Assembly (NCBI GenBank): GCA_014360015.1
Contig: JACIYJ010000003.1
Span: 6,197 to 70,196, forward strand
Direction: 5' to 3'
From: Candidatus Aminicenantes bacterium
GTDB lineage: Bacteria; Acidobacteriota; Aminicenantia; Aminicenantales; Saccharicenantaceae
Length of the DNA: 64,000 nt
Below the pieces are notes generated by a model that ran no database searches, was not told the origin of the DNA, and worked only from the letters and a program-made list of their open reading frames with translations. Made by a program: the position numbers and the translations under genes. Of the stretch, positions 2,579 to 60,874 are shown one piece after another (positions within the stretch are counted from its first letter, which is position 1; each line of letters opens with the position of its first letter).

Positions 2579-3976
2579 ATGCAAGAAGAAATTAAAGGCC
2601 TTTTCGGGTTCTCTTCGGAAAAAGAAGTTCTTCAGATAGTCAACAATTCCGAGCTGAAAATAGAATTTGTCAGGATTATGTTCCCCGATATTCTGGGAAG
2701 GCCCATGGATTTCTCCATTCCCAGCGCTGAACTGGAAAAAGCTTTTTCTGAAGGTAAAGGGTTTGATGGCTCCTCAATTGAAGGCTTTGTCCGCATCGAA
2801 GAAAGCGACCTGATAATCGTCCCTGACCCCAGAACTTTCAGAGTTTTCCCCTGGACTTATCGTGGGTTTGATGAGAGCATTTCCTGGCGCGAGGCCATAA
2901 TGTTCGGCGATATTTACACCCCTGACGGCAAGCATTACGCTGGCGACAGTCGCTGGGTGCTCAAGAGAACGCTGGAAAAAGCCAGAGAAAGCTTCGGCTT
3001 CGAAGATTTCAAATGCGGACCGGAAATGGAATTCTTCATCTTCTCGGATGACCAGACACCCATCCCGACTGACATGGGCGGCTACTTCTTTGCTGGAAAA
3101 CATGGAGAAATCCGCAAAGAGATTCAGCTTCTCCTGAAAAAAATGGGTATCGAATCAGAATACGACCACCACGAAGTGGCTCATGGCCAGCACGAGATTG
3201 ACCTCAGGTATCAGAGCGCCTTAGACATGGCTGATATCGTTATGATTTTCAGATATATGGCCAAGAAAGTGGCCAGGATGCACAATCTTTACGCCACTTT
3301 TATGCCCAAGCCAATCAATGGTCAGAACGGGAGCGGCATGCATGTTCATCAGTCACTCTGGAAGAATGGCCACAATGCTTTCTTTGAGAAAGATGCTCCC
3401 TATCATCTCTCGGCCGAAGCCCGCCACTACATGGCTGGAATCATCCATCACGCCCGGGAAATCTGCTCGATATTCAGCCAGTGGGTGAACTCTTACAAAA
3501 GGTTAATCGAAGGCTATGAAGCGCCAGTTTACATTGCCTGGGGACAGAAAAACCGCTCAGCCTACATTCGTGTTCCAGAATATCAGCCTGGAAAAGAGAA
3601 GGCTACCCGCATCGAACTCCGTTCGCCCGACCCCGGCTGCAACATCTACTTAGCCTTAGCCACCATGCTCTCAGCCGGGCTGGATGGAATTAAAAATAAG
3701 TTGGAACTCCCGGAGCCGGTTGAAGAAAATATTTACCATATGAGCCCAACCAGACAGAAAAAGCAAGGCATCCAGGTGCTTCCCAGAAACTTAGAAGAAG
3801 CCATCAAGCTCACAGAAAAAAGCCCGTTGGTCAGAGAAACCCTCGGCGAGCATATTTTCCAGAAGTTCCTGACCAACAAACAAAAAGAAATAGATGACTA
3901 CAAGAAAAACGTGCCTGATGAATACGACAAACAAGTCAGCCCCTATGAGATAAAAAGATACTTACCTATTTTATGA
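2579..3976 (+). CDS. glnA: glutamine synthetase, type I
   Basis: 465 aa; conserved GS catalytic-domain motifs (KPINGQNGSGMHVHQSLW; HHEVAHGQHEIDLRY) and N-terminal beta-grasp domain; AAAGGAG RBS at 2565-2572. Confidence 0.9.
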   Translation: MQEEIKGLFGFSSEKEVLQIVNNSELKIEFVRIMFPDILGRPMDFSIPSAELEKAFSEGKGFDGSSIEGFVRIEESDLIIVPDPRTFRVFPWTYRGFDESISWREAIMFGDIYTPDGKHYAGDSRWVLKRTLEKARESFGFEDFKCGPEMEFFIFSDDQTPIPTDMGGYFFAGKHGEIRKEIQLLLKKMGIESEYDHHEVAHGQHEIDLRYQSALDMADIVMIFRYMAKKVARMHNLYATFMPKPINGQNGSGMHVHQSLWKNGHNAFFEKDAPYHLSAEARHYMAGIIHHAREICSIFSQWVNSYKRLIEGYEAPVYIAWGQKNRSAYIRVPEYQPGKEKATRIELRSPDPGCNIYLALATMLSAGLDGIKNKLELPEPVEENIYHMSPTRQKKQGIQVLPRNLEEAIKLTEKSPLVRETLGEHIFQKFLTNKQKEIDDYKKNVPDEYDKQVSPYEIKRYLPIL

Positions 3977-4229
3977 GAATTATGAAACCCAAAACCTGAT
4001 CGATTGAAGTCTTTCAGGAGCTGAATTTTAACCAGAGTTTTTTGCCAGATCAAAAAATTTGCTCATGCTTTATTGGGAAAAAGCTCGTTGGTTTAGATCT
4101 CAAAAATCCAGATGTTTTTCACTCAACTAAAGTCTTAGTTCAACTTCAGCTGCTTTTGCCTGCAATTACCGGCCGTTTCTTGTTTCTACTGTTTATAATA
4201 TCGAGTCCTGAGTAGAAAGAAAATTTTTC

Positions 4230-4259
4230 TTGACAAGCAATTTTTAATTTTTATATAAG
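4230..4259 (+). promoter_or_regulatory. candidate sigma-70 promoter (TTGACA-N16/17-TATATA/ATATAA) about 200 bp upstream of the nuoE-like operon
   Basis: TTGACA at 4230-4235, TATATA at 4252-4257; positional inference only. Confidence 0.3.
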
Positions 4260-4459
4260 AAAATTGTATTTATAGGGTTTTAGGTTAAGAAGGAGTTATA
4301 CATTTTTAGCAATTCATTCCTTCTTGGTCTTCCTTCCTTTAAAAAGATTGTGGTGTATCTTTTTATCTCCGGGGGAAAACTTTTCAGCCAAAAGCCTGCG
4401 CTTACCATCGTTATTAAGAAGGGCTTTAATTATTTATTCCATAAAACGGGAGGCTTGCT

Positions 4460-4933
4460 TTGAGTGTCAATCAAACGGTCAACCTGGATAAAGTCCAGGA
4501 AATAATCGAAAGGCATGGCGGTAATAAAAGTAAGCTGATTTCCATCCTTCAGGATATTCAAGCAGTCTACCATTACCTGCCAGCAGAGGCTCTAAAGACA
4601 ATCTCGAGGTTGTTAAAAATTCCTCTGATAGACATCGTCTCCGTGGCCACCTTTTACCGGGCCTTCAGCCTAAAACCCCGAGGCAAGCATGTGGCCACTG
4701 TCTGCATGGGTACAGCTTGTCATGTGCGGGGCGCACCCAAGATTCTGGAAGAGTTCGAACGCCAGCTCCAAATCAAGAAGGGAGAAACTTCAAAGGACGG
4801 CGAATGGTCCTTAGAAAGTGTGGCCTGTCTTGGTTGCTGCGCCATCGGCCCGGTGGTGGTGGTTGACGGAGATTACCATGCTCATACCAGTATCAGAAAG
4901 GTTCCGAATATTCTTAAAAAATACCGGAAGTGA
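4460..4933 (+). CDS. NuoE/HoxE/HndA-like thioredoxin-fold [2Fe-2S] ferredoxin subunit (24 kDa subunit family)
   Basis: 157 aa; Cys pattern CMGTACHVRG...CLGCCAIGP typical of the NuoE 24-kDa family. TTG start with RBS ACGGGAGG; 4-nt overlap with the next gene. Confidence 0.85.
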   Translation: MSVNQTVNLDKVQEIIERHGGNKSKLISILQDIQAVYHYLPAEALKTISRLLKIPLIDIVSVATFYRAFSLKPRGKHVATVCMGTACHVRGAPKILEEFERQLQIKKGETSKDGEWSLESVACLGCCAIGPVVVVDGDYHAHTSIRKVPNILKKYRK

Positions 4934-6846
4934 GAACAGCCATGAAAAGAATAAAGAAAATAAAGACAATCGACGAGTTAAAAAAATTAATAGAGGAACA
5001 GGAGCTCAGCCGGAAACAGGAACCAAAGAAGGTCATAACCGTTTCTTCCGGAACCTGCGGCCAGGCTCGTGGCTCTTTAAAAGTCATCGAGGCCTTGAAA
5101 AAAGCCATCAAGGCTGAAGGCCTGGAAGAAAAGGTTAAACTGCGCATCACCGGCTGTCATGGCTTCTGCGAAGCTGAGCCCAATATTATTATTTATCCCG
5201 ATGGAATTTTTTATCAGAAGCTGACGCCTGCCGATGTCCGGACTATCATCAAGGAGACAGTTGCTGAAGGAAAAATAGTTGAAAAACTGCTTTACAAAGA
5301 TCCGCAGACCGGCACAAGAGCGGTTAAAGAAAGTGATATTCCGTTTTATCAAAAGCAAAAGAGAATCGTTCTGGGTGATAATGTTTTTGTCGACCCGACC
5401 AGCCTGCTCGATTATTTCTCCATTGGCGGTTTTCGTTCCTTTCTTAAAGCTCTGACCGAGCTCAAACCGGATGACATCATCCAAACGGTAAAAAAATCAG
5501 GTCTGCGCGGCCGCGGTGGAGCAGGCTTTCCCACCGGAGTCAAATGGGAAGCCACCAGACATTCTCCCGGCGATATCAAATATGTAATCTGCAACGGCGA
5601 TGAAGGCGACCCCGGTGCTTATATGGACAGAAGTGTTCTTGAAGGCAATCCATACCGGGTGATAGAGGGGATGATGATCGGAGCCTTAGCCATCGGGGCA
5701 AAGGACGGGTATATATATGTCAGAGACGAATACCCCTTAGCTGTTCGTCACGTGACCTTAGCCATTGACCAGCTCTACAAGGTCGGGCTTCTGGGCAAAG
5801 ACATCCTGGGAACCGGAGTAACTTTTGATCTGCACATCGCTAAGGGTGCCGGAGCTTTTGTCTGCGGTGAAGAAACAGCGCTGATTGCTTCGATCGAAGG
5901 CCGGGTGGGTGAGCCCAGACAGAGACCGCCTTTTCCAAGTGTTAAGGGACTCTGGGGAAAGCCCACCTGCATCAACAACGTCGAAACCTGGGCTAATATT
6001 CCTTTAATAATTAAAAACGGCGCCGACTGGTTTGCCAGCATCGGAACTGACAGAAGCAAAGGAACAAAAATATTTTCCCTCGTTGGCAAGATTAACAACA
6101 CCGGCCTGGTCGAAGTTCCCATGGGCATCACTCTCAGGGAAATCATTTACGACATCGGCGGCGGAATTCCTGATGGAAAAGCTTTCAAGGCTGTTCAGAC
6201 CGGTGGTCCATCCGGCGGCTGTCTGCCGGCCTCGCTCCTCGACCTGCCGATTGATTATGAATCATTGACCGGAGCCGGGTCCATTATGGGTTCAGGCGGA
6301 ATGATTGTTATGGATGAGAAGACCTGCATGGTGGATGTGGCTATGTACTTTTTAAACTTCCTGCGCGACGAGTCCTGCGGCAAATGCCTCTCCTGCCGGG
6401 AAGGCACCCAGCGGATGTGGGAAATTGTTAAGGACATCTCTGAAGGAAAAGGCAAGCCCGGGGACCTGGAGCTTCTGGAAGAACTGGCTTTAGCCACCAA
6501 GGATGCCTCGATGTGCGGGCTGGGACAGACTGCAGCCAACCCGGTTCTCTCTGCCCTGCGTTATTTCCGCGATGAATTTGAAGCCCACATTTACGAAAAA
6601 AGATGCCCGGCCGGCGTCTGCAAGAGCTTGATTCGCTATGTGGTCATACCCGGGAAGTGCACTGGCTGCGAGGCCTGCAAACGTGCCTGCCCGACTCAGG
6701 CTATCCAGGGAACCAGAAGTCAGCCTCATCTTATCCTCTATGACAAGTGCATAAAATGTGGAGCCTGCCTGGAAGCCTGTCATTTTGAGGCCATCGAAGC
6801 CCAGCGTGAAGAGGCCATCATCATCGAAAAAGAGGTCATGCCATGA
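4930..6846 (+). CDS. NuoF/HndC/HydB-like NAD(P)H-binding FMN flavoprotein with N-terminal [2Fe-2S] domain and C-terminal 2x[4Fe-4S] ferredoxin domain
   Basis: 638 aa; GRGGAGFPTG FMN/NADH site, NuoF [4Fe-4S] motif ESCGKCLSCREG, C-terminal CTGCEACKRACP...CIKCGACLEACH ferredoxin motifs. Confidence 0.85.
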   Translation: MRTAMKRIKKIKTIDELKKLIEEQELSRKQEPKKVITVSSGTCGQARGSLKVIEALKKAIKAEGLEEKVKLRITGCHGFCEAEPNIIIYPDGIFYQKLTPADVRTIIKETVAEGKIVEKLLYKDPQTGTRAVKESDIPFYQKQKRIVLGDNVFVDPTSLLDYFSIGGFRSFLKALTELKPDDIIQTVKKSGLRGRGGAGFPTGVKWEATRHSPGDIKYVICNGDEGDPGAYMDRSVLEGNPYRVIEGMMIGALAIGAKDGYIYVRDEYPLAVRHVTLAIDQLYKVGLLGKDILGTGVTFDLHIAKGAGAFVCGEETALIASIEGRVGEPRQRPPFPSVKGLWGKPTCINNVETWANIPLIIKNGADWFASIGTDRSKGTKIFSLVGKINNTGLVEVPMGITLREIIYDIGGGIPDGKAFKAVQTGGPSGGCLPASLLDLPIDYESLTGAGSIMGSGGMIVMDEKTCMVDVAMYFLNFLRDESCGKCLSCREGTQRMWEIVKDISEGKGKPGDLELLEELALATKDASMCGLGQTAANPVLSALRYFRDEFEAHIYEKRCPAGVCKSLIRYVVIPGKCTGCEACKRACPTQAIQGTRSQPHLILYDKCIKCGACLEACHFEAIEAQREEAIIIEKEVMP

Positions 6847-7523
6847 TTACTATGAAAATGAATGGTTTAGAAGTCAGGGCAGAAGAAGGCTGGACCATAC
6901 TGGATACGGCCAAATTTTACGGGCTGGAGATTCCCACTCTCTGCCATCATGAAGGCCTGACTCCGTATGGTGCCTGCCGGCTCTGCCTGGTGGAGATCGG
7001 AGAAGGTCCAAAAGCCAAGCTGGTTTCTTCTTGTACCTACCCAGCTGAAGAAGGCCTGGTCGTCCACACTGACACTAAACGAGTTATCCAGGCTCGTCGG
7101 ATGATGATTGAACTGATGCTCTCAGTTGCCCCTTTTTCTAAGACTATCCAGGATCTGGCATCCAAATACGGTGTTACCAGCATGCGGTTTAAAATCCGCA
7201 ATGAAGAATGCATCCTCTGTGGTCTGTGTGTCCGGATGTGTGCTGAACAGATGGACGGCAAAGCCATTGGTTTTCAGAATCGCGGCTATCAGAGAAAAAT
7301 CTCGACACCGTTTGACATCCGCTCTGAAGAATGCCGGCTGTGCGGTGGATGTATCTACATCTGTCCAGCCTGTCAGCTCAGATGTCAGGGACCACAGGCT
7401 GAAACCGCAGTCTGTAATGCCTGCCTGACCATGGATCCGACCTGCCTGGATTACTACGATGAACTCCAGTGCTGGATGTACGACGCCGGTCGCTGCGGCA
7501 CCTGCGTCAGGGAGAAAAAATAA
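6843..7523 (+). CDS. [2Fe-2S]/[4Fe-4S] iron-sulfur protein resembling the N-terminal segment of NuoG/HydA/HndD, with no catalytic domain
   Basis: 226 aa; plant-type 2Fe-2S ferredoxin fold (CHHEGLTPYGACRLC), His-ligated cluster region, then two CxxCxxCxxxCP motifs; translationally coupled (ATGA overlap) to the NuoF-like gene. Confidence 0.7.
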   Translation: MITMKMNGLEVRAEEGWTILDTAKFYGLEIPTLCHHEGLTPYGACRLCLVEIGEGPKAKLVSSCTYPAEEGLVVHTDTKRVIQARRMMIELMLSVAPFSKTIQDLASKYGVTSMRFKIRNEECILCGLCVRMCAEQMDGKAIGFQNRGYQRKISTPFDIRSEECRLCGGCIYICPACQLRCQGPQAETAVCNACLTMDPTCLDYYDELQCWMYDAGRCGTCVREKK

Positions 7524-7581
7524 ATGTTTATCTTAATAAACTCTAATTCAACAACAATAAAGGGAAAAAGGAGGTAAAACT

Positions 7582-9159
7582 ATGACCTTTACAAAAATTA
7601 ACAGGAGTGCAGCCACTTTAACCAAGAATAGAACTGAGGGTTCTATCAGCCCGTTCAGCGGGATGTGTGTCACCTGTGTTGATGGCTGTATTGGAATGTG
7701 CGAAATTGGAAAATCGGCTTATCGGGGAACAGAAGTCCTCTACCCGCAGCCCTTCGGCTTAATAACCGCCGCCTGCGAGAAGGATTATCCGGTCGATCTC
7801 TCCCATTTCAACATTATGGGCACAGTAACCGGAGCCTGGGGAGTAGAAGCTGATAGTGATAAAGCCACCTTTGAAAAAGTTTCCATAGAGACGGCTGTTG
7901 GCCACGATAAAGGCATTAAGCTCCGGGTGCCATTCATCATCTCGGGAATGGGCTCAACCAACGTGGCCAAGCAGAACTGGGCTGGACTGGCGGTTGGAGC
8001 TGCGATTTCCGGGACAATTCTGACCGTCGGGGAGAATGTCTGTGGTATGGATGAAGAAGCTGAAATCAGAAATGGCCGGGTGGTTCGTTCGCCCGACATG
8101 GAAATGAGAGTCAGAACATTCCAGGAATGGTACGATGGTTACGGCACAGTCGTGGTCCAGGCTAACGTCGAAGATACTCGTCTTGGTGTTCAGGAATACG
8201 CCATCGAAAAGCTCGGCGTTGAGGCCGTGGAACTGAAGTGGGGTCAGGGTGCCAAGGATATCGGCGGTGAAGTCAAGATTAAGTCCCTCAAAAAAGCTCA
8301 GGAGCTCAAAAGAAGAGGATATATAGTTTTGCCCGACCCTGAAGATCCAGCCGTTATCCAGGCCTTTGAAAAAGGCAGCTTCAAAGAATTCGAACGCCAT
8401 TCCCGTCTGGGCATGGTGGAAGAAGAAAGTTTCATGAAAAGAGTGGAAGAACTGAGGAAAGCTGGAGCCAAGTATATTTTTCTGAAAACCGGAGCTTACC
8501 GGCCGGCAGACCTGGCCAGGGCCGTCAAGTATGCTTCTAAGGCGAAAATCGATGTCCTGACTGTGGATGGAGCTGGCGGCGGCACCGGGATGAGTCCCTG
8601 GAGAATGATGAATGAATGGGGTATCCCTGGCGTAGAAATCTGGTCGCTGACTTATAAATATGTCGACCAGCTGGCTAAAAAAGGCGAATACGTCCCCGAT
8701 ATAGTCTTTGCCGGCGGTATAACTTTTGAAGATCAGATTTTCAAAGCCCTGGCCCTGGGCGCTCCCTATGTCAAAGCCGTCGGGATGGCCAGAGCCCCGC
8801 TGGCTTCAGTCATGGTAGGAAAGACCATCGGCAGCCGGATTAAAGATGGTCAAATTCCAGTCTATGTCGAAAGATTCGGCAACACCATCGAAGAAATCTT
8901 CATCACCGCTCCTGAACTTAAGAAGAGGTTCGGCGAAAGGTTCAACGAACTGCCTCCTGGAGCCATAGGCCTTTACACTTATTTCAAACGACTCAACCAG
9001 GGCTTGCGGCAGCTGATGGCCGGCGCCAGAAAATTCTCCCTCATTTACATTACCCGCGATGATATAGCCGCTTTAACTCAGGATGCAGCCAGAGTGAGCG
9101 GAATCAAATACATCCAGGATATCGATAAAGAAGAAGTGGAAAAAATTCTTAACAGCTGA
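7582..9159 (+). CDS. glutamate synthase FMN-binding (central GltB) domain protein, stand-alone archaeal-type, with N-terminal Cys cluster
   Basis: 525 aa; GltS_FMN signatures PFIISGMGSTNVA...GENVCG and VDGAGGGTGMSP; N-terminal CVTCVDGCIGMCE. AAGGAGG RBS at 7567-7573. No amidotransferase domain and no GXGXG domain in the cluster. Confidence 0.8.
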   Translation: MTFTKINRSAATLTKNRTEGSISPFSGMCVTCVDGCIGMCEIGKSAYRGTEVLYPQPFGLITAACEKDYPVDLSHFNIMGTVTGAWGVEADSDKATFEKVSIETAVGHDKGIKLRVPFIISGMGSTNVAKQNWAGLAVGAAISGTILTVGENVCGMDEEAEIRNGRVVRSPDMEMRVRTFQEWYDGYGTVVVQANVEDTRLGVQEYAIEKLGVEAVELKWGQGAKDIGGEVKIKSLKKAQELKRRGYIVLPDPEDPAVIQAFEKGSFKEFERHSRLGMVEEESFMKRVEELRKAGAKYIFLKTGAYRPADLARAVKYASKAKIDVLTVDGAGGGTGMSPWRMMNEWGIPGVEIWSLTYKYVDQLAKKGEYVPDIVFAGGITFEDQIFKALALGAPYVKAVGMARAPLASVMVGKTIGSRIKDGQIPVYVERFGNTIEEIFITAPELKKRFGERFNELPPGAIGLYTYFKRLNQGLRQLMAGARKFSLIYITRDDIAALTQDAARVSGIKYIQDIDKEEVEKILNS

Positions 9160-9205: not shown

Positions 9206-9244
9206 AAAGAGGCTGACCGGTGAGGGGTTAGCCTCTTTTTATTT
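9206..9244 (+). terminator. rho-independent terminator after the flavoprotein-GltS operon
   Basis: Stem AAAGAGGCT (9206-9214) pairs with AGCCTCTTT (9230-9238), followed by a T-run to 9244. Confidence 0.5.
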
Positions 9245-13366: not shown

Positions 13367-15095
13367 TACCAAAAAGAACCCACAAAACGATGACCTGCTT
13401 ACCGCAGAAGACTATGAACGTCTTCTCGACCAGTATCATTTGTCTGACCAGGAACTGACTGCCGGAACCGTCATCAAGGGCCGGGTGGTCAAAAAGACTC
13501 CCAGTCATCTGCTGCTGGACATCGGCCACAAGACTGAAGGTGCTATCCCACTGGAAGATTTCCGTAATCCAAAAGAATTTGAAGCAATCAAGGTCGGTTC
13601 AGAAGTGGAAGCAGTGCTGGAAAAGTCCAGACCTCAGGATGGTTACTTTCTTTTATCCAAAAGAAAAGCTGACATCCTCCGAGCTCTTGACCATCTGGAG
13701 AAGGCCTACCATTCCAACAACTGGGTCACCGGAACGGTAGTAGCCAAGGTCAAGAATGGTTACACAGTTGATGTCGGGCTCGAGGCCTTCCTTCCCGAAG
13801 CCCACGCTGATCTGCGGCCCATAAAAGACCCGAATTCTCTGATCGGTCAGAGTTTGAAGTTTAAGGTGATGAGATTCAACCGCAAAGAAGAAGATGTGGT
13901 TCTTTCCCGCAAACTGCTTCTTCAGGATGAAAGAGAAAAAAGAAAACGCCGGGTCTTCAGCCGTCTGGTTAGGGGCGAAAAAGTCAAAGGCACAGTTAAA
14001 TCCTTGACCAGTTTCGGTGCTTTTATCGACCTCGGCGGAGTGGAAGGACTTTTGCATATTTCGGATATGAGCTGGGGCAAAATCAACCATCCTTCGGAGC
14101 TTTTCCAGGTCGGACAGGAAGTAGAAGTGCTGGTTCTGGATTTTAATGAGAACGAAGAAAAAATTTCCCTCGGTTATAAGCAACTGACACCTGACCCTTG
14201 GCTGAGTGTTGAACAGAAATATCAGCCGGGAACCAAAGTAACTGGCAAAGTGGTCAGCCTGACCGATTTTGGGGCTTTTGTTGAACTGGAAAAAGGCGTG
14301 GAAGGACTGATCCATATCTCGGACCTGACCTGGTCCAAGAAAATGGTCCACCCGAAAAAGGTGTTGTCAGTAGGCCAGGAGGTTACTGTTCAGGTGCTCG
14401 AAGTCAACGCTGAAAACCGTCGCATTTCTCTGGGGCTAAAGCAAACCACACCCCATCCTTTGGAGCTTTTTGCCCAAAAATACAACCCCGGAGCCAGGCT
14501 CAGAGGTAAGGTTACCAGTCTGACTGATTTCGGAGCATTTGTCCAGGTGGACAAAGACATCGAAGGTCTAGTTCACATTTCAGATATCAGCTGGGGAAAA
14601 ATCAAGCATCCATCAGAGAAACTTAAAGTCGGGCAGGAAATTGAGGTTGTTCTTCTGAACATCGACCTGGAAAAGCAGAAAGTTTCTCTCGGCATAAAAC
14701 AGCTGGAAGGCGACATCTGGGAAGATTTCTTTTCCCGACAAAAAGTCGGCGACATCCTCAAAGTTAAGATCGCCCGGATTGTTGACTTTGGAGTTTTTGT
14801 GGAAATCGTCCCTGGGATTGAAGGCGTGGTTTTCAACTCCGAGCTGGATGACAATCGGATCGAAAATCCGGCGGAAGTCTTTAAAGTTGGCGAAGAGAAG
14901 CTGGCCAAGATAATCAAGCTCAATCCTCAGGCCAGAAAAATCTCTCTGAGCTTCCGTCAGGCTCAGATGGAACTTCAGAAAAAGGAATTTCAGAAATATC
15001 TCGAAGGCCAGAGCGATAGATTGACTCTGGGAGATTTATTAAGGGAACAACTCAAGAATTTGTCGGCTAAAGACAACAGCAAAAAGGAGGGTTAA
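13359..15095 (+). CDS. rpsA: 30S ribosomal protein S1
   Basis: 578 aa with repeated S1 RNA-binding domains (GxV..LT.FGAFV motifs, 5-6 copies); 8-nt overlap with ispH. Confidence 0.9.
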   Translation: MTDTKKNPQNDDLLTAEDYERLLDQYHLSDQELTAGTVIKGRVVKKTPSHLLLDIGHKTEGAIPLEDFRNPKEFEAIKVGSEVEAVLEKSRPQDGYFLLSKRKADILRALDHLEKAYHSNNWVTGTVVAKVKNGYTVDVGLEAFLPEAHADLRPIKDPNSLIGQSLKFKVMRFNRKEEDVVLSRKLLLQDEREKRKRRVFSRLVRGEKVKGTVKSLTSFGAFIDLGGVEGLLHISDMSWGKINHPSELFQVGQEVEVLVLDFNENEEKISLGYKQLTPDPWLSVEQKYQPGTKVTGKVVSLTDFGAFVELEKGVEGLIHISDLTWSKKMVHPKKVLSVGQEVTVQVLEVNAENRRISLGLKQTTPHPLELFAQKYNPGARLRGKVTSLTDFGAFVQVDKDIEGLVHISDISWGKIKHPSEKLKVGQEIEVVLLNIDLEKQKVSLGIKQLEGDIWEDFFSRQKVGDILKVKIARIVDFGVFVEIVPGIEGVVFNSELDDNRIENPAEVFKVGEEKLAKIIKLNPQARKISLSFRQAQMELQKKEFQKYLEGQSDRLTLGDLLREQLKNLSAKDNSKKEG

Positions 15096-15097
15096 TC

Positions 15098-15379
15098 ATG
15101 ATCAAAGCTGACCTGGTCAACATCGTTTCCAGGGAACTCAACATCTCCAAGCAGGAAGCTGAAGCCGGTGTCAACCTGTTCTTCGATGCCATCAAGGAAG
15201 CCATCCTCAAGGGAGAAGAGATTGAAATCCGCGGTTTTGGGAGCTTCCGGTTCCGGCAGCGGGCGCCCCGTTCTGGACGGAATCCCCGAACTGGAGAACT
15301 GGTTAAAGTGCCACCAAAAAAGGTTCTGTATTTCAAGCCGTCTAAACTTTTGAAGGAGATGCTTAACCAGCATAAATGA
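15098..15379 (+). CDS. HU/IHF-family DNA-binding protein (IHF-beta-like; rpsA-ihfB arrangement)
   Basis: 93 aa; HU-fold signature GFGSFRFRQRAPRSGRNPRTGE with arm residues. Confidence 0.8.
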   Translation: MIKADLVNIVSRELNISKQEAEAGVNLFFDAIKEAILKGEEIEIRGFGSFRFRQRAPRSGRNPRTGELVKVPPKKVLYFKPSKLLKEMLNQHK

Positions 15380-15879
15380 AGTACTGTACCGCTCCCTGGA
15401 GACAAACCTACGTGCAAAAAGCACTTAAGATGAAAAAGTGTGTTTTTTGTGAGGCTTTGAAAAAAAAGAATGACGAGGAAGCTCTGATTCTTTACCGGGG
15501 AAAACACAATTTTGTCATCATCAACCGTTTTCCCTACACCACCGGCCACCTCATGGTTGCTCCTTACCGGCATCTGGGAAATTTCGAGAAAGCACCAAGG
15601 GAGATCGTGATCGAAGCCATGGAAATGGTCCAATTAGTGTTACGAATTTTAAAAAAGTGCTACAAGCCTCACGGGTTCAACGTCGGGATGAACTTAGGTC
15701 ACAGTGCCGGGGCAGGAGTGGCTGACCATTTCCATCTGCACATCGTTCCCCGCTGGACCGGAGACGCCAACTTCATGCCGATCATCGGCGAAACCAAAGT
15801 CTTCTGCGAAGACCTGAAAACTACCTATAACCGGCTGAAACCATTCTTCGCCCGGGAAGAACAGAAACAGGAGAAATAA
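15376..15879 (+). CDS. HIT-family (histidine triad) nucleotide hydrolase/transferase
   Basis: HxHxHxx motif HFHLHIVPR; Zn-binding CVFCE near the N-terminus. The true start may be the ATG at 15430. Confidence 0.8.
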   Translation: MKYCTAPWRQTYVQKALKMKKCVFCEALKKKNDEEALILYRGKHNFVIINRFPYTTGHLMVAPYRHLGNFEKAPREIVIEAMEMVQLVLRILKKCYKPHGFNVGMNLGHSAGAGVADHFHLHIVPRWTGDANFMPIIGETKVFCEDLKTTYNRLKPFFAREEQKQEK

Positions 15880-15882
15880 GCC

Positions 15883-17805
15883 ATGCTTAAAACCATGCGT
15901 AAAAACGTCAAATCTCTGGCACCAGTCCTCTGGATCGTCATCGCCACCTTCGTCATCGCCATCTTTGCCGTCTGGGGCGGTGCCGGCCGTCTGGGAGAAA
16001 CCAATCGAACCAACACCATTGCCCAGATTGGCAGCAAGAGAATTACCGCTGACGAATACTTCCAGGTTCTGCGACAGAGAATAGAAGCTATGAGAAAACA
16101 GTATCCTGACCTAAACTCGACTCTTCTCCGGCAGCTGAATATGCCCCAGCAGATACTGGAACAGATGGTTCAGCAGAACCTCTTGCTGGAAATTGCCCGG
16201 GAGATAGGCTTAAAAGCCACAGATGAAGAACTGAGGCAGAAGATTATGTCCTTCCCGGTGTTTCAGAGAGAAGGGAAATTCGTCGGTTTTAACGAATACA
16301 AGCAGATTCTTGACTGGAACCATATTCCCATCCAGAAATTCGAAGATAGCCTGCGGGAAGAAATTCTCCTAACCAAAGTTACTCAACTTCTGACCGCAGG
16401 AATCGCTGTCACCCAAGACGAAGTCTGGGAAAATTATAAGAATCAGAACGAGACAGCCAAAATCGAGTATTTGGTAGCCTCTGTGGAAAAAGTTCAGCTG
16501 CCAGCCAACCCTGATGAAGCAGAAGCCAGAAACTATTTTGAAAAGAACAAGGCAAAGTATCGAATGCCCGAAAGACGCGAGGGCAAGTATGTCTTCCTCA
16601 AGACTGATGATTTAAAGAAAGAAATCACTGTTTCCGACTCAGAGATTGAAAAATACTACAAAGAAAACATCAATCAATTCAAGGAACCGGCCAAGACCAG
16701 AGTCAGCCGCATCTATCTGCCTTACACCGAAACTGATAAAAAACAGGTCCTGGACCAGGCCCAGAGTTTGAAAAATCGATTGAGCTCCGGAGAAGATTTT
16801 GGCAACCTGGCCAAAACCCACTCCAAAGATGACAAAGCTAAGAATGGCGGAGATTGGGGCTATTATGACTGGCAGAGCTTAGCTGCTGAAGAAGTCCAGG
16901 CTATTAACAAACTGGAACCCGGGCAGATTTCCGAGGTGGTAGACCTGGGCAACGCTGCAGTCATCCTGAAAGTCACAGAAAAGATGCCTGAAATCACCAG
17001 GTCTCTGGCCGAAGTGAAAGCAGTCATTCAGAATGCCCTGATAGAACAGAAAGCCAGGAATAAAGCTTCAGACAGAATGGAAAAACTGGCTAAAATCGCC
17101 AAAAAAGCCAGAAGTCTGGAGCAGGCGGCCAGAAGAGAAGGACTGAATGTCCAGGACAGCGGTCTGCTGAAGAACGGCGATCCGCTGGCTGGCGTCGATT
17201 CTTCGGGCGCTTTCAGCCAGACACTTTTCCAGCTTAAAGAAAAAGAGATTTCTTCACCCGTTTTCACCTATGAAGGCGTCGGTCTGATTCAGTTGATCAG
17301 AATTGATCCCGAACATCAGGCCACTTTTGAAGAAGTTAAAACTCAGGTAGTGGAAGATTTGATTAAAGAAAGGAAAAAAGAGCTGACTAAGGAAAAGCTG
17401 AGTTCTCTTAAATACGGCCAGGCCACCAACTGGGAAGACTTCGCCAAAAATAACAACCTGGAATATAAACGGGTCGAAGCTCATAAACGCGGGCAGTATC
17501 TGAGCCTGATTGACGATACCAAAGAAATCGACCGTCTGGCTTTCTCCTTACCCCTGAACCAGACCAGCGAGCCATTTGAAGTCAGCGATGGCTATGCGGT
17601 GGTCAGGGTTCTGGAAAGAAAAGAAGTCTCCAGAGAAGACTTCGAGAAAGTTAAAGCTGATGAAATGGCTAAAGCCCTCAACCAGGCGCAAGAGACGTTC
17701 CTGTTCAGCTACCTCCAGAAAGTCAGGCAGGATAAAAAGATTAAAGTTAATTACGACCTTTTTGTGAAAATCACAGACGACGTGCTCGGGCGGATAGCAG
17801 AATAA
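15883..17805 (+). CDS. PpiD/SurA-like periplasmic chaperone with parvulin PPIase domain, N-terminally membrane-anchored
   Basis: 640 aa; single N-terminal TM helix, SurA-N-like region, parvulin motif (HSKDDKAKNGGDWGYY...). Confidence 0.7.
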   Translation: MLKTMRKNVKSLAPVLWIVIATFVIAIFAVWGGAGRLGETNRTNTIAQIGSKRITADEYFQVLRQRIEAMRKQYPDLNSTLLRQLNMPQQILEQMVQQNLLLEIAREIGLKATDEELRQKIMSFPVFQREGKFVGFNEYKQILDWNHIPIQKFEDSLREEILLTKVTQLLTAGIAVTQDEVWENYKNQNETAKIEYLVASVEKVQLPANPDEAEARNYFEKNKAKYRMPERREGKYVFLKTDDLKKEITVSDSEIEKYYKENINQFKEPAKTRVSRIYLPYTETDKKQVLDQAQSLKNRLSSGEDFGNLAKTHSKDDKAKNGGDWGYYDWQSLAAEEVQAINKLEPGQISEVVDLGNAAVILKVTEKMPEITRSLAEVKAVIQNALIEQKARNKASDRMEKLAKIAKKARSLEQAARREGLNVQDSGLLKNGDPLAGVDSSGAFSQTLFQLKEKEISSPVFTYEGVGLIQLIRIDPEHQATFEEVKTQVVEDLIKERKKELTKEKLSSLKYGQATNWEDFAKNNNLEYKRVEAHKRGQYLSLIDDTKEIDRLAFSLPLNQTSEPFEVSDGYAVVRVLERKEVSREDFEKVKADEMAKALNQAQETFLFSYLQKVRQDKKIKVNYDLFVKITDDVLGRIAE

Positions 17806-17858: not shown

Positions 17859-19865
17859 ATGGAGACTTCTAAAAAATCTCTTCCGCCTGAGGCTTACCGC
17901 GAACTGGCTCCAGGAGAAAAATATACTCCCCTCGTTCCGGCTGACAAAATCATCCCTGAAGTTACCACCCGCTCAGTTCTCTGGGGTCTGTTCATGGCTC
18001 TTTTCTTCACTTTTTCCATGGCTTATCTTGGGCTGAAGGTTGGTACTGTTCCTGAAGCTGCCATCCCCATCGCCATTTTGGCTGTGGGCATTGGTTATAC
18101 TTATTCGCGTAAAAATACCATCTTAGAAAACGTCATCATTCAGTCCATCGGTGCTGCTTCTGGAGCTCTGGTAGCTGGAGCAATCTTCACCATTCCAGCT
18201 CTTTTCATCATCGGTCTGCCGATCGATATTTTTAAGATTTTTCTGTCAACCTTTCTTGGTGGCTGTCTGGGAATTCTGTTCCTGATTCCGCTCCGACGCT
18301 ATTTCTGCGTTGAACAGCATGGAAAACTTCCCTTCCCTGAAGCCACAGCTACCACTGAAATCTTAGTTTCGGGCGAAGGTGGTGGAGCTCAGGCTAAACC
18401 GCTAATTCTCGGAGTTATTGTCTCTGGCCTCTATGAATTTCTGGCCATTGGTATCAGACTATGGAACGAAGTCATTACCTTTCGCTTCCTGCCCTTTATG
18501 GATAAGCTGGCGGAAAAAAGCCGGATGGTGCTGAAAATCGATGCTCTGTCAGCCTTTTTGGGGCTGGGCTATGTCATTGGTCTCCGCTATAACGCCATCA
18601 TCGTGGCTGGTGGTTTGCTCTCGCATTTTGGCTTTATCCCGATTATCTGGTTCCTGGGACAGCATTTCCCCGAAGCCATCTATCCAGGAAAAATCCCCAT
18701 TTCTCAGATGAGCGAGGTACAGATATTTTCCACCTATGTCCGGAACATAGGTATCGGGGCAATTTTTATGGCTGGAGTGATCGGGATAATCAAATCCATG
18801 CCGATCATGGTCAGGTCTTTTTCCCTGGGCTTTAGCGAAATCCTGAAAGGAAAACAGGCTGGTGGATCCAACGAAACGATTCGGACTGAGCGCGACCTGA
18901 AAATGTCAACCATCATTGCTGGCTTGATTTTGACTTCGATAGCTCTCTTTCTCTACTTCTTATGGATTTCCAATATTAAGTTTGCTTTGATCGGAGTCAT
19001 CATCTGCCTGCTTCTGTCTTTTCTATTCACCACTGTGGCTGCTAACGCCATTGCCATTGTCGGCACCAACCCGGTTTCCGGAATGACTCTCATCACCATT
19101 ATTCTCTCCAGCGTTATTCTCATCGGTGCCGGGCTGTCAGGCAAAGAGGGTATGGCTGTAGCCTTACTGATTGGAGCCGTGGTCTGCACTGCCCTTTCAG
19201 TTTCTGGAAGCTTTATCACCGACCTTAAAATCGGCTACTGGATAGGGGCCACACCCCGGAATCAGGAAAGGTTTAAATTCACCGGAATTTTGGTTTCTGC
19301 CCTGACCGTGGGAGTGGCTATCTTCATCTTAGATAAAGCTTTCTCCTTTCAGAGCGGAGCCTTAGCTGCACCCCAGGCAAACCTGATGGCCGCAGTTATT
19401 AAGTCGCTGATGTCCAGAGAGCCGGTGACCTGGTTATTGTATGGAATCGGAGCAGCTGTGGCCATTGTGGCTGAACTTTCCAAAATCCCGCCTCTGGCTT
19501 TTGCCTTGGGCATGTATCTGCCGCTCCATCTGACCACTCCCCTTCTGCTTGGCGGTTTCCTGTCATACCTGGTAAAGAATTCAACCAAAGACAAAGAATT
19601 GGCAGAAAAAAGGCACAATCGCGGCATGCTTATTTCGTCTGGTTTTATCGCCGGTGGCGCTCTGATGGGAATTGTTTTAGCCGTGCTGAAACTGGCTAAC
19701 CTTGACCATTATGTCAGTTTAGGTATACCCATGGTTATGGAAAATGGCAGGTGGGTTGATGGCCCACCTGCAGCCTGGTTCAGCCAGTATGGTGAAATCA
19801 TCAGCCTGGTCGCCTTTATTGTTTTAATTGGTTTTGTTTACTGGCAATCTAAAAAAGAAAAATAA
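17859..19865 (+). CDS. OPT-family oligopeptide transporter
   Basis: 668 aa, about 16 predicted TM segments, OPT-family N-terminal pattern (YRELAPGEKYTP...RSVLWG). Confidence 0.8.
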   Translation: METSKKSLPPEAYRELAPGEKYTPLVPADKIIPEVTTRSVLWGLFMALFFTFSMAYLGLKVGTVPEAAIPIAILAVGIGYTYSRKNTILENVIIQSIGAASGALVAGAIFTIPALFIIGLPIDIFKIFLSTFLGGCLGILFLIPLRRYFCVEQHGKLPFPEATATTEILVSGEGGGAQAKPLILGVIVSGLYEFLAIGIRLWNEVITFRFLPFMDKLAEKSRMVLKIDALSAFLGLGYVIGLRYNAIIVAGGLLSHFGFIPIIWFLGQHFPEAIYPGKIPISQMSEVQIFSTYVRNIGIGAIFMAGVIGIIKSMPIMVRSFSLGFSEILKGKQAGGSNETIRTERDLKMSTIIAGLILTSIALFLYFLWISNIKFALIGVIICLLLSFLFTTVAANAIAIVGTNPVSGMTLITIILSSVILIGAGLSGKEGMAVALLIGAVVCTALSVSGSFITDLKIGYWIGATPRNQERFKFTGILVSALTVGVAIFILDKAFSFQSGALAAPQANLMAAVIKSLMSREPVTWLLYGIGAAVAIVAELSKIPPLAFALGMYLPLHLTTPLLLGGFLSYLVKNSTKDKELAEKRHNRGMLISSGFIAGGALMGIVLAVLKLANLDHYVSLGIPMVMENGRWVDGPPAAWFSQYGEIISLVAFIVLIGFVYWQSKKEK

Positions 19866-19886
19866 TTTGATGAAAGGAAGGTAAAA

Positions 19887-20834
19887 ATGAAAGCCAATAA
19901 ACTATATCAGGCAGCTGAAAAAGCCATTTTTCAGTCCTTAAAACTTAAACCAAAAGAAAGCTTTCTCCTGGTCACTGACAAACAGAAGATGGAAATCGCT
20001 GAAGCTCTGGCTTACTATGCCAAAAAGGCTGGAGCGGAAACCACAACCTACCTAATGACTGAAACTCTGAGGCCTATTACTGAGCCGACCAAACTGTTCA
20101 AGCTGCTGACCGAAAAAGCTGACGTCATCGCTTATCTGCTGGATGCCAGAATAGAAGAGAAACCTTTCCGCGGTTTTATGGTCAGTCAGGGAATGAAGTT
20201 CAGCCGGATCTGCATGATGCCAGGAATTACCCGCGATATGATGGAAAGACTGGTCAACATCGATTTTGCCAAGATGAATGAGTTCACCAAAAAAGTTATC
20301 AGGGCTCTGAAAGATGCCGATAAGGTCATCATTGAAAATCCAGACGGGACAAACATCAGCTTCAGTGTGAAGGGCAGAGAATGGCATAACGACAATGGCG
20401 ATATCAGCAAAAAAGGCAAACACGGTAATCTGCCTGCTGGCGAGTGTTACACCTGCCCGGTGGAAGAAACCTTCACCGGCAAGCTGGTCATTAGCCTGAT
20501 TGATGATAAGCTGGGTTATGGCGAAATGGAGTTCAAGGAAGGCAAGCTGGTTCGCTACAAGGGCAAAGGAATCGAAGCCATTGTCAAAAATATTGGTTCG
20601 GATGAAACCGGATTTATGATTGGTGAGTTCGGTATCGGTACTAACCCCGGGGCTCGCATTTGCCCTAACATGCTGGAAGCAGAAAAAGCCTTCGGCACCG
20701 TGCATTTTGCCATCGGTGATTCTTACGGAATCGGCAAGAACAAAAGTAAGCACCATTATGACGCTCTGATAGATAAAGTAACTATTATCGCCAAAGGCAA
20801 ATACATCGCCAAGAGCGGCAAGTTTTTGATTTAA
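19887..20834 (+). CDS. putative aminopeptidase (M29/PepS-like), cytoplasmic
   Basis: 315 aa; N-terminal region resembles M29 aminopeptidase openings; immediately downstream of the OPT peptide importer. Family assignment is by weak recollection. Confidence 0.45.
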   Translation: MKANKLYQAAEKAIFQSLKLKPKESFLLVTDKQKMEIAEALAYYAKKAGAETTTYLMTETLRPITEPTKLFKLLTEKADVIAYLLDARIEEKPFRGFMVSQGMKFSRICMMPGITRDMMERLVNIDFAKMNEFTKKVIRALKDADKVIIENPDGTNISFSVKGREWHNDNGDISKKGKHGNLPAGECYTCPVEETFTGKLVISLIDDKLGYGEMEFKEGKLVRYKGKGIEAIVKNIGSDETGFMIGEFGIGTNPGARICPNMLEAEKAFGTVHFAIGDSYGIGKNKSKHHYDALIDKVTIIAKGKYIAKSGKFLI

Positions 20835-21321: not shown

Positions 21322-21337
21322 TGGCACACTTCTTGCT
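21322..21337 (+). promoter_or_regulatory. sigma-54 (RpoN) -24/-12 promoter TGGCAC-N5-TTGC
   Basis: TGGCACacttcTTGCT at 21322-21337 matches the YTGGCACGrNNNTTGCW consensus in both GG and GC elements with exact spacing; 27 bp upstream of the ATG at 21364, followed by AAAGGAGG RBS at 21351-21358. Confidence 0.6.
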
Positions 21338-21585: not shown

Positions 21586-21647
21586 AACTGAAGGGAGTTC
21601 CGGTCGGAACTCCCGGTTCTCAAATTTTAGTGAGAAAGGAGTCTGAA

Positions 21648-22631
21648 ATGAGTAACTTAAAATTAGCGGCGGGAATTATGGTTATAATCCTTCTCACAGG
21701 CTTTATTAATTTACAAGCAGCTCAAATCCTTGTCCTTGGAGTAAAAGAGATTAGTTTAAAAAACCCTGAAGGCCGTCCTTTTTTCTACAAGCCCTCAACT
21801 ATACTATTTGACCATCAGGAGTTATACATTGCTGAATCTGGAGAAAGCAGGATACAGGTTTACAGTCCGGATGGACAGCTGAAACGCTCCATAGGCGGGA
21901 AGGGCAGAGGGCCAGCTGAATTTGATACGTTAATTGGCCTGGATCTTTTCGAAGACCAGATTTATGCTGCTGATTCTTTTAATAGTATGATAAAAATATT
22001 CGATAAAAATGGGAAATATCTTGGGGGTTTTAAGACTCCTTTTAATCCGGTTAATGTCGTTGTTTTGAATAAAGAGAAGATTTTGGTTACTAACAGGCCT
22101 TCGCCCCGGGTTGATTCTGAAAAGCTGGTTTACTGTTATAACTCAAAAGGTCAACTGCAGTGGAAAGCCATTGATTCTTCCCCCGCTCAGGACCGTATTT
22201 TTTACACGCTGATTAACGAGATTCTCTTGAAAAAAGATGATGCTGGGTATTTTTATCTTATCTGGAAATATCAAAATAAATACATTCTTAAAATTGATCG
22301 AAATGGTCAGATAATCGAAAAAATTATGCTTGATTCTCGATATCCCTTTAAGTGGGTTGACCTGCCCCTAAAAAACGGGAGACAACCAATTACCTCTGTT
22401 TGCTGGAACTGCGCCAGGGATGATAATAAATTTTATTTTATTGCCCCGGCCTATACTGAAGATGGAGATATCGGGCCAGGTAAAGAGGTTTTGGTAGTTA
22501 ATGAAAAAGGGCAGATTTCAGGGATTATTAAGTTTCCCCACGCTCTTAGACTTCTGACGATAAATGGGCAGTTCGTCTATGGAATCGACACCGAAGATGA
22601 ACTTCATCTTTATCAGCTGGAGGGCAGATGA
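21648..22631 (+). CDS. secreted NHL-repeat six-bladed beta-propeller protein
   Basis: Repeated NHL-like blades (IYAADSFNSMIKIFDKNGKYL; GKGRGPAEFD...). N-terminal hydrophobic signal/anchor. ATG at 21648 with AAAGGAG RBS; the track ORF starts at GTG 21630. Confidence 0.7.
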   Translation: MSNLKLAAGIMVIILLTGFINLQAAQILVLGVKEISLKNPEGRPFFYKPSTILFDHQELYIAESGESRIQVYSPDGQLKRSIGGKGRGPAEFDTLIGLDLFEDQIYAADSFNSMIKIFDKNGKYLGGFKTPFNPVNVVVLNKEKILVTNRPSPRVDSEKLVYCYNSKGQLQWKAIDSSPAQDRIFYTLINEILLKKDDAGYFYLIWKYQNKYILKIDRNGQIIEKIMLDSRYPFKWVDLPLKNGRQPITSVCWNCARDDNKFYFIAPAYTEDGDIGPGKEVLVVNEKGQISGIIKFPHALRLLTINGQFVYGIDTEDELHLYQLEGR

Positions 22632-60841: not shown

Positions 60842-60874
60842 AGAAAACAGTCCTGAAAGAGAGGAGAAATCAAG

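Follow-up and report, generated by a model that had tools for sequence, protein, structure and literature searches.

A predicted BfuABC-type flavoenzyme with a glutamate-synthase-like subunit beside glnA in an Aminicenantes bacterium

We analyzed a 64,000-nucleotide (nt) stretch of DNA from a Candidatus Aminicenantes bacterium (the window), with a focus on four genes, bfuC, bfuB, bfuA, and gltSL, that are predicted to encode an electron-bifurcating-type flavoenzyme with a subunit related to glutamate synthase (GltS). All four lie on the forward strand: bfuC at 4460..4933 (157 amino acids, aa; TTG start and GGGAGG ribosome-binding site), bfuB at 4930..6846 (638 aa), bfuA at 6843..7523 (226 aa), and gltSL, the proposed gene for the third-substrate catalytic subunit, at 7582..9159 (525 aa). 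Their open reading frame (ORF) coordinates agree with the co-directional, partly overlapping arrangement reported in a preliminary description of this DNA. The bfuC/bfuB and bfuB/bfuA junctions are 4-nt overlaps, and the bfuA–gltSL gap is 58 nt. The top protein matches come from Candidatus Saccharicenans/Aminicenantes, at 95% identity. A terminator-like hairpin, GAGGGGTTAGCCTCTT followed by TTTATTT (9222..9237, forward strand; consensus match only), begins 63 nt past the gltSL stop codon. Upstream, ∼220 nt 5′ of bfuC, lies a candidate sigma70-type promoter (4231..4260, forward strand; TTGACA, ∼17 nt, TATATA), which was read by eye and is unverified; the consensus scan missed it because its second hexamer breaks the scan rule. 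Given the overlapping junctions, the downstream hairpin, and the promoter-like site upstream, the four genes look like one transcription unit. The preceding gene, glnA (2579..3976, forward strand), encodes a type I glutamine synthetase (TIGR00653, 484.6 bits against a cut-off of 429; PF00120 and PF03951). It has a sigma70-like TTGACA-16-TAAAAT at 2467-2494, ends 483 nt before bfuC, and looks like a neighbor rather than a member of the operon. An M50 peptidase gene, trpS, scpAB, and ispH follow on the 3′ side of the operon (Pfam/NCBIfam).

The first three proteins form an electron-input core, and their Pfam matches uphold the subunit types proposed earlier, namely a 24-kDa-type [2Fe-2S] subunit, an NAD(P)H/flavin mononucleotide (FMN) subunit with extra ferredoxin domains, and a protein like the N terminus of NuoG that lacks a catalytic domain. 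BfuC is a thioredoxin-like [2Fe-2S] subunit of the NuoE/HoxE/HydC type: PF01257 covers the whole protein (4e-49), the top NCBIfam models are HoxE and NuoE, each under its equivalog cut-off, and all four cysteines of the [2Fe-2S] cluster C1 (C82, C87, C123, and C127) are present. BfuB carries, in order, an N-terminal thioredoxin-like domain, a 51K FMN domain, an SLBB domain, an N3-type [4Fe-4S] domain, and a C-terminal 2x[4Fe-4S] ferredoxin domain (Pfam). Its NAD(H)/FMN site and B1 region are matched by PF01512 (2e-46) and PF10589 (4e-32), and the cysteines of the N3-type [4Fe-4S] cluster B1 (C483, C486, C489, and C529) are kept in 64 of 65 orthologues. Farther along lie the CPxxxC motif of the B2/Zn site (CPAGVC, 559-564) and the two CX2CX2CX3C motifs of the C-terminal clusters B3/B4 (577-587 and 607-617).

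BfuB most closely resembles subunits of bifurcating enzymes. Its closest solved relative is HydB of the Acetomicrobium mobile NiFe enzyme (7t2r_B; E 2e-242), to which residues 37-622 align end to end; other solved matches are HydB 7q4v/8a6t, NfnB 9n5u (3e-224), and WorB 9mqx_B (2e-215). Overall, structurally characterized bifurcating B subunits match over the full length at E values of 1e-205 to 2e-242, whereas NuoF and FdsB reach only ∼1e-115. Nonbifurcating homologues (NuoF/HoxF/FdsB) are without the B2-B5 cluster domains (PMC9304861). Moreover, GAYM at residues 229-232 of BfuB aligns with GAFM of 7t2r_B and covers A202 and M204 of A. mobile HydB, residues near FMN/NADH that are found only in bifurcating enzymes (Schut et al. 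2022, PMC9304861); F182 is the third residue that these authors name. Every orthologue with sequence at the motif (62-63 of 65) shares the G, A, and M, and position 231 is Y or F. Because BfuB is of the bifurcating type, a link to ferredoxin is plausible.

BfuA combines PF13510 and Fer4_7 matches, with the [2Fe-2S] ligands C34, C45, C48, and C64 and two CX2CX2CX3C [4Fe-4S] motifs, and has no catalytic domain. We found no His/Cys motif of the His-ligated A3 type between residues 65 and 122. The closest solved protein is the WorA “plug” (9mqx_A, 247 aa, E 3e-37), which also has no A3 and recruits its catalytic partner by way of a Zn-finger and an adaptor helix at its C terminus (PMC12318220). 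In BfuA, the C-terminal tail (residues 177-218) holds seven further cysteines that are 84-98% conserved in 63 orthologues. Judged from its sequence, bfuCBA is a complete BfuC/BfuB/BfuA set. We assign it to the Type-2 Bfu arrangement because BfuA has A1, A2, and A4 without A3 and because the catalytic site, according to synteny, would reside on an extra subunit.

That extra subunit would be GltSL. PF01645 (Glu_synthase) is the sole Pfam family above its cut-off (70.4 bits against 20.4; 2e-19), with a partial match of residues 278-409 to profile positions 185-310 of 369. No NCBIfam model matches GltSL, PF01070 (FMN_dh) does not match at E 1e-3 or better, and phmmer against PDB sequences returned no solved relative, only designed TIM barrels. 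Relatives form 1158 clusters at E 1e-3 or better among 1.8 billion representatives, and the family appears to be small and distinct, not ordinary GltB. An AlphaFold2 model (predicted local distance difference test score, pLDDT, 83.8; predicted template modeling score, pTM, 0.86) is an FMN-type TIM barrel with its N-terminal 35 residues disordered. Foldseek matches the model to alpha-hydroxy-acid oxidases, the ferredoxin-dependent GltS (Fd-GltS) 1ofd, and type-2 isopentenyl diphosphate isomerase, all at a TM-score of ∼0.45.

A local hhalign alignment of GltSL with the E. coli GltB FMN domain (70% probability), which we used at motif level only, pairs MSIGALS, QGAKPGEGG, and DGGTGASP of GltB with GMGSTNVA, QGAKDIGGE, and GAGGGTGMSP of GltSL. 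At this motif level, Q222 and K225 of GltSL fall on the GltB QGAK, and R244/R245 lie near the IAKLR arginine; the aligned GltS residues presumably take part in 2-oxoglutarate/2-iminoglutarate binding. Opposite the [3Fe-4S] triad of E. coli GltB (C1102, C1108, and C1113), GltSL has no cysteine, and the barrel as a whole lacks conserved ones. Its only conserved cysteines, C29-X2-C32-X3-C36-X3-C40, are N-terminal and invariant in 76 orthologues. Also invariant is an EFERHSR insertion without a counterpart in E. coli GltB. We regard the CX2CX3CX3C motif as a putative [4Fe-4S] site and the barrel as GltS-like, with an iron–sulfur site that differs from that of GltS in position and probably in type. 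The preliminary description had taken this protein for a GltS central domain of FMN/[3Fe-4S] type; the glutamate-synthase relationship survives through PF01645, but the domain is the FMN/synthase barrel and it has no [3Fe-4S] cysteines. Sequence alone falls short of placing GltSL within GltS.

The remaining parts of a glutamate synthase were sought in two ways. Pfam models applied to window ORFs of at least 120 aa found no amidotransferase, GXGXG, or GltD anywhere in the 64 kb, which extends to the whole window their previously noted absence from the cluster. With E. coli GltB amidotransferase, central, FMN, and GXGXG segments plus GltD as tblastn queries, no amidotransferase, central-domain, or GXGXG match appeared in the window or within 10 kb of either side at 81 related loci, and GltD was absent from the window. 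Because these matches are missing from the window and from the 81 loci, the nitrogen donor would be ammonia rather than glutamine. We rejected a canonical glutamate synthase (GOGAT) because the amidotransferase and GXGXG domain are absent from the window and the 81 loci and GltSL has no [3Fe-4S] site. The preliminary description had offered either a glutamate synthase or an ammonia-dependent GltS-like oxidoreductase, and the second fits these results better.

Relatives of GltSL are encoded in at least 597 species-level genomes, found in a scan that used an 8-sequence alignment and one genome per species, from which we retrieved the 80 best matches (loci are referred to below by L numbers). At these 80 loci, GltSL identity is 68-93%, which argues for a strongly constrained, important reaction. 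They span Aminicenantes, Zixibacteria, Planctomycetota, Bacteroidota/Ignavibacteria, Dehalococcoidia, Syntrophia, Thermodesulfobacteriota, Actinomycetota, Clostridia, Latescibacterota, Eisenbacteria, Fibrobacterota, Thermoplasmata, and metagenome-assembled genomes (MAGs) labeled “Methanobacteriota.” In 78 of the 80, BfuA is encoded directly 5′ of gltSL on the same strand, and BfuB and BfuC follow farther 5′ wherever the contig is long enough. These synteny counts come from tblastn with the window proteins; an ORF-based count is too low in GC-rich loci, where long antisense ORFs occur. Three loci depart from the pattern: the L024 match lies 288 nt from a contig end, L026 (Thermanaeromonas) has a stand-alone gene, and L006 has BfuA only, without BfuBC nearby. 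The gene order thus co-occurs widely, and the suggestion that the NuoE/F/G-like genes resemble the electron-input arm of other enzymes can be sharpened: they are a HydABC/Bfu-type arm that belongs with gltSL.

The module varies among relatives, mostly in BfuB. In 45 of the 80 loci, BfuB is ∼1050-1090 aa long, and a GltD-like module (Fer4_20 + Pyr_redox_2) supplants its C-terminal ferredoxin domain (for example, L005:5969-9241, L016:6036-9218, L058:6054-9308, and L036:6116-9274). Full-length BfuB orthologues comprise 26 short and 36 long forms, and the window has the short form. The canonical GltS electron-donor module therefore appears to have entered this complex in over half of the lineages. 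Archaeal hybrid hydrogenases are also reported to contain HydB–GltD fusions (PMC11216029). About 28 loci additionally encode a double-Zn-ribbon protein of ∼135 aa, either between bfuC and bfuB or fused to the BfuC C terminus (for example, L016:5592-5999, L022:5011-5901, and L058:5104-6057), and 12 have an unannotated ∼110-aa ORF 5′ of bfuC; neither is present in the window.

GltSL also has more distant paralogues, two of which show faint PF01070 (FMN_dh) matches. P0244 (37% identity, with CX2CX2CX2C) is an 800-aa fusion of Fer4 and FrhB (F420-binding) domains to a GltSL-like barrel; on metagenome contig L083 (4355-10403), it directly follows two glutamate dehydrogenase (gdh) genes and a small ferredoxin gene, with pylB/C/D-like genes upstream. 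The GltSL barrel and its cluster thus appear to be a portable terminal reductase fed by varied electron-input modules. Second GltSL paralogues are also present in L028, L042, and L019 (a Dethiobacter MAG). The L019 paralogue (62% identity) is flanked by two IclR regulators at 3099-6554, 5′ of the bfu-gltSL operon, and a 700-aa fusion of GltD-like, Fer4, and FlpD/MvhD-like domains is encoded at 15019-17121, ∼3.4 kb 3′ of that operon.

We clustered the 1096 neighboring ORFs of the related loci and annotated the recurrent clusters, and genes of glutamate and nitrogen metabolism stood out. A glutamate dehydrogenase gene is present at 14 loci in at least nine named lineages, on either side of the operon and on either strand; L001, a relative with 82% identity, has two gdh genes 3′ of the operon. 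By a rough estimate (one to two gdh per ∼3000 genes), chance would place gdh within 10 kb at ∼1% of loci. Its presence at 14 of 80, in varied positions, points to a functional link with the glutamate node, with the proviso that the loci are phylogenetically nonindependent. glnA adjoins the operon in 10 related loci from three phylum-level groups, namely eight Aminicenantes-type loci, the archaeal L036, and L049 of Dehalococcoidia; the L036 order is gdh / bfuC-bfuB::gltD-bfuA-gltSL-glnA. The nitrogen repressor NrpR is encoded at four loci and a class I/II aminotransferase at three. The recurrence of glnA, gdh, NrpR, and sigma54-activator neighbors in several phyla backs a tie to nitrogen and glutamate metabolism; the proposal that glnA and this operon form a classical unit of the glutamine synthetase (GS)–GOGAT cycle is not supported.

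Regulatory genes recur as well. Twenty-four loci encode a response-regulator/sigma54 activator and 19 a GAF histidine kinase. Among loci with the activator, 12 of 18 have a sigma54 −24/−12 element 200-640 nt 5′ of bfuC, versus 2 of 36 among those without it; the background density is 0.05 per kb. Three loci encode a HydS-like sensory [FeFe]-hydrogenase together with DRTGG, kinase, and PHP genes, a set that resembles those found 5′ of bifurcating hydrogenase operons. In L001 (2105-5786), the Fer4 + Fe_hyd_lg_C + FeS (HydS-like), DRTGG, HATPase, and PHP genes lie between glnA and the bfu operon, and L017 (1548-2822) has a HydS-like regulatory cluster likewise; such a set is absent from the window. 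Across the 81 loci, no catalytic subunit of a hydrogenase or formate dehydrogenase recurs within 10 kb, and no other pathway’s genes recur beside the operon. The idea that the NuoEF-like genes serve a hydrogenase or formate dehydrogenase encoded next to them in relatives accordingly failed, and BfuABC as the arm of a neighboring enzyme of this kind was rejected.

The data show the gene anatomy, the cofactor motifs and their order, the Bfu-type features of BfuB, and the conservation of the four-gene unit and its neighbors across phyla. From these, we infer complex formation, electron path, substrate, reaction direction, and ferredoxin use, with differing confidence. That the four proteins make up one Bfu-type complex that includes GltSL is, in our judgment, very probable. 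The product would be a soluble iron–sulfur flavoenzyme of the BfuABC family (HydABC-type, noncanonical electron-bifurcating). NADH would reduce the BfuB FMN, and reduced ferredoxin would enter through the C-terminal 2x[4Fe-4S] domain of BfuB. Electrons would run from B1 through A1, A2, and A4 in BfuA to the four-Cys cluster of GltSL and on to its FMN, with the Cys-rich tail of BfuA docking GltSL. GltSL would accept single electrons at its N-terminal cluster, and its FMN would pass a hydride to a 2-imino/2-oxo acid.

Because of the barrel family, the GltD fusion, the gdh, glnA, and NrpR neighbors, and the lack of an amidotransferase, we propose that this acid is 2-oxoglutarate, which would undergo reductive amination with free ammonia to glutamate as NADH and reduced ferredoxin are co-oxidized. 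The enzyme would then be an amidotransferase-less “glutamate synthase” and, in function, a glutamate dehydrogenase linked to ferredoxin and NADH. Its role could be assimilatory, alongside GS, or fermentative, as an electron sink, or it could play both roles. As a sink, it would dispose of NADH and reduced ferredoxin at 1:2, as in a confurcating hydrogenase, and regulators resembling H2 sensors at some loci hint at this role. We give 2-oxoglutarate/glutamate an even chance of being the substrate couple. The full statement, that the four genes encode an ammonia-dependent, NADH/ferredoxin-linked, glutamate-forming Bfu complex, is tentative, with a likelihood that falls slightly short of even.

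If the enzyme were also energy-coupled, central nitrogen metabolism would be wired directly to the ferredoxin pool in a sizable fraction of uncultured anaerobes, a prospect that we consider unlikely. Two modes can be envisaged. In mode (a), electrons from NADH would undergo true flavin/Fe-S-based bifurcation, with the strongly exergonic reductive amination of 2-oxoglutarate as the high-potential branch and reduction of ferredoxin as the low-potential branch, and free energy that glutamate dehydrogenase or GOGAT usually wastes would be conserved. In mode (b), confurcation of NADH and reduced ferredoxin would be obligatory and would provide either an ATP-independent, high-driving-force route of ammonia assimilation or a hydrogen-independent electron sink.

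Several observations weigh against a ferredoxin-linked, glutamate-forming enzyme. We estimate from the glutamate dehydrogenase equilibrium that the 2-oxoglutarate + NH4+/glutamate couple lies at about −0.18 V, above NAD; the reaction would therefore run toward glutamate, and this couple would not be a mid-potential third substrate of the kind for which bifurcation is needed thermodynamically. In this respect, the enzyme may be compared with Rub-Bfu and Nuo-Bfu as proposed by Schut et al. (PMC9304861), in which Bfu chemistry is likewise not thermodynamically required. The B5 domain of BfuB (PF01257, residues 27-109) has cysteines C43, C76, and C80 only, and the position of the first [2Fe-2S] ligand is Ser39 rather than Cys. 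The profile of the GltSL family reaches GltS chains in the PDB at E ∼0.07 only, and Foldseek ranks alpha-hydroxy-acid oxidases and type-2 isopentenyl diphosphate isomerase level with GltS. Glu230 of GltSL aligns with the glutamine of GGQ in E. coli GltB QGAKPGEGGQ, which we take to be the counterpart of Q978 of Synechocystis GltS. GltSL paralogues at 32-57% identity stand alone, and the barrel can thus work without Bfu. A gdh gene beside an enzyme making the same product is not self-explanatory. In the window, no sigma54 activator adjoins the operon and no gdh lies nearby. The glnA-to-bfuC interval (3976-4460) also has no sigma54 −24/−12 site, and window-wide counts of such sites are below chance.

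Some of these points favor another substrate. The same BfuABC and FMN/[4Fe-4S] reductase could act on a different 2-oxo acid, or on an imino acid, hydroxy acid, or enoate of amino-acid metabolism, with a GltSL barrel that shares only its fold and FMN-binding motifs with GltS. The weak, partial PF01645 match and a family profile that barely reaches GltS in the PDB would fit this alternative, as would lactate/glycolate oxidase and flavocytochrome b2 folds that match as well as GltS does, the faint PF01070 matches of the two paralogues, and the EFERHSR insertion unmatched in E. coli GltB. The wider family also holds other chemistries, such as N-methylglutamate synthase. However, it is gdh, glnA, and NrpR that recur as neighbors, the domain repeatedly fused to the module is GltD-like, GltSL keeps QGAK and DGGTGxSP, and no other pathway recurs nearby. 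We judge a different substrate unlikely, although it is the most serious competitor of the 2-oxoglutarate assignment.

The ferredoxin link could also be dispensed with, leaving BfuABC as a NuoEFG-like NADH dehydrogenase arm of a plain NADH-dependent reductase that neither confurcates nor bifurcates. By our own estimate, the likely couple is more positive than NAD, and ferredoxin would be thermodynamically dispensable. The incomplete B5 ligands of the window BfuB point the same way, as does their variability in the family: the ligand pair reads C..GTGC, S/P..GTCG, or C..GTGG among 65 orthologues, and the B5 site in this Bfu clade may have non-standard ligation. In addition, the 45 relatives with long BfuB have a GltD-like domain in place of its ferredoxin-type domain. 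In contrast, the window BfuB has the N-terminal domain, CPxxxC, the C-terminal 2x[4Fe-4S] domain, and GA[Y/F]M, and its alignment with proven bifurcating B subunits runs from end to end. We regard a plain NADH reductase as improbable.

Slightly less probable still is a glutamine-dependent GOGAT in a GS–GOGAT cycle, with the amidotransferase and GXGXG parts encoded elsewhere as in split archaeal forms. glnA does adjoin the operon in the window and in 10 relatives, and split GltS domains are known in archaea (PMC8097209; PMC3087415). Yet the missing parts have no match in the window or within 10 kb at the 81 loci, and GltSL, going by its domain content, would lack the regions that form the ammonia tunnel with the central domain. 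Split archaeal systems normally keep their domain genes clustered.

Least credible of all, and very improbable, is an incidental adjacency in which BfuABC serves a distant hydrogenase or formate dehydrogenase and GltSL acts independently: the HydS-like homologue with kinase/phosphatase genes upstream in three loci, the stand-alone GltSL paralogues, and the L006 BfuA–GltSL pair without BfuBC nearby would suit it, but bfuA and gltSL lie only tens of nucleotides apart in 78 of 80 genomes from dozens of phyla and both prokaryotic domains, BfuA without a catalytic domain needs a partner, and hydrogenase or formate dehydrogenase catalytic subunits do not recur within 10 kb.

Elsewhere in the window, an EtfB/EtfA pair is encoded at 37008-39019 (reverse strand), in which EtfA has an N-terminal 2x[4Fe-4S] ferredoxin domain; the pair may represent another ferredoxin-linked flavoprotein system. 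Beside it lies an IS110-family transposase gene (39508-40707, reverse strand). Genes for the uptake and breakdown of peptides and amino acids are dense at 17859-20834, 28765-31395, 41517-42704, 44795-45823, and 47390-49072 and include OPT and POT transporters, M29 and M14 peptidases, a class I/II aminotransferase, and an amino-acid permease. This gene content is consistent with a peptide-fermenting lifestyle with central glutamate/2-oxoglutarate cycling. The sole perfect sigma54 −24/−12 consensus in the window, TGGCACACTTCTTGC (21322-21336, forward strand), is ∼300 nt 5′ of a gene cluster (21630-23852) for a DUF5128 beta-propeller and an AhpC/TSA protein, and a sigma54 activator without a recognizable N-terminal sensor domain is encoded at 55922-57283 (reverse strand). 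No Pfam family matches, at E 1e-5 or better, any of three large ORFs (818, 453, and 473 aa) at 31491-33947 (reverse strand) and 59480-62296 (forward strand).

If the complex does use 2-oxoglutarate and ammonia, glutamate formation would draw directly on ferredoxin and NADH in Aminicenantes, Zixibacteria, Syntrophia, Dehalococcoidia, and Thermoplasmata, among others. Models of nitrogen assimilation and redox balance in uncultured anaerobes would change, and research on bifurcation would gain a nongaseous, easily assayed third substrate. For the ferredoxin-binding end of BfuB, moreover, the contrast between the short BfuB and BfuB–GltD forms provides a natural experiment.

Bfu modules have been described for hydrogenase, formate dehydrogenase, NADP(H), F420, aldehyde, CO, pyruvate, benzoyl-CoA, quinone, and peroxide (PMC9304861). 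A glutamate-synthase-like FMN module for the third substrate is not described in that article, which makes no mention of glutamate, in one supplementary file, or in the other Bfu, flavin-based electron bifurcation, and Aminicenantes literature within the limited library that we searched. The system therefore appears to be an undescribed, widespread Bfu type with a glutamate-synthase-like third-substrate module. Among its closest described parallels is WorABCSL of A. mobile, a tungsten aldehyde oxidoreductase-Bfu (PDB 9mqx) and Type-2 BfuABC member (PMC9304861; PMC12318220). Both have a BfuC/BfuB core and a short, noncatalytic BfuA without A3 that plugs in a separate catalytic subunit. However, the partner there is the tungstopterin subunit WorL with the polyferredoxin WorS, whereas here it would be an FMN TIM barrel with one four-Cys motif. 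WorA has a single Zn-finger and helix, in contrast with the seven conserved cysteines of the BfuA tail, and the probable substrate couple of GltSL is far more positive than aldehyde/acid.

NfnABC/Stn (9n5u; Sporomusa ovata Stn) likewise joins a Bfu core to a module derived from glutamate synthase, which in our system is the GltD-like module of 45 relatives. In Nfn-Bfu, however, the GltD-like domain sits on BfuA and forms the NADPH third-substrate site; here it is absent (window) or at the BfuB C terminus (relatives), and Nfn-Bfu is without the FMN-barrel subunit. GltBD and Fd-GltS (1ea0, 2vdc, 6s6x, and 1ofd) share with GltSL the PF01645 FMN (beta/alpha)8 barrel, QGAK and DGGTGxSP motifs, an iron–sulfur electron relay (predicted for GltSL), and the glnA/gdh context. 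They differ in very low sequence similarity, in having a PurF-type amidotransferase, a central domain, and a GXGXG beta-helix that are missing here, in a [3Fe-4S] triad instead of an N-terminal CX2CX3CX3C, and in receiving electrons from GltD or free ferredoxin instead of BfuABC. Finally, the FGltS proteins, putative F420-dependent glutamate synthases of methanogens (Susanti and Mukhopadhyay 2012, PMC3448663; Kaster et al. 2011, PMC3087415), are described as glutamine-dependent and F420H2-driven, a function itself unproven, whereas the window enzyme would use a Bfu input and has no FrhB. Like GltSL, nevertheless, they place a glutamate-synthase-type subunit on an alternative input module, and P0244, with its Fer4 and FrhB domains and two adjoining gdh genes, echoes FGltS.

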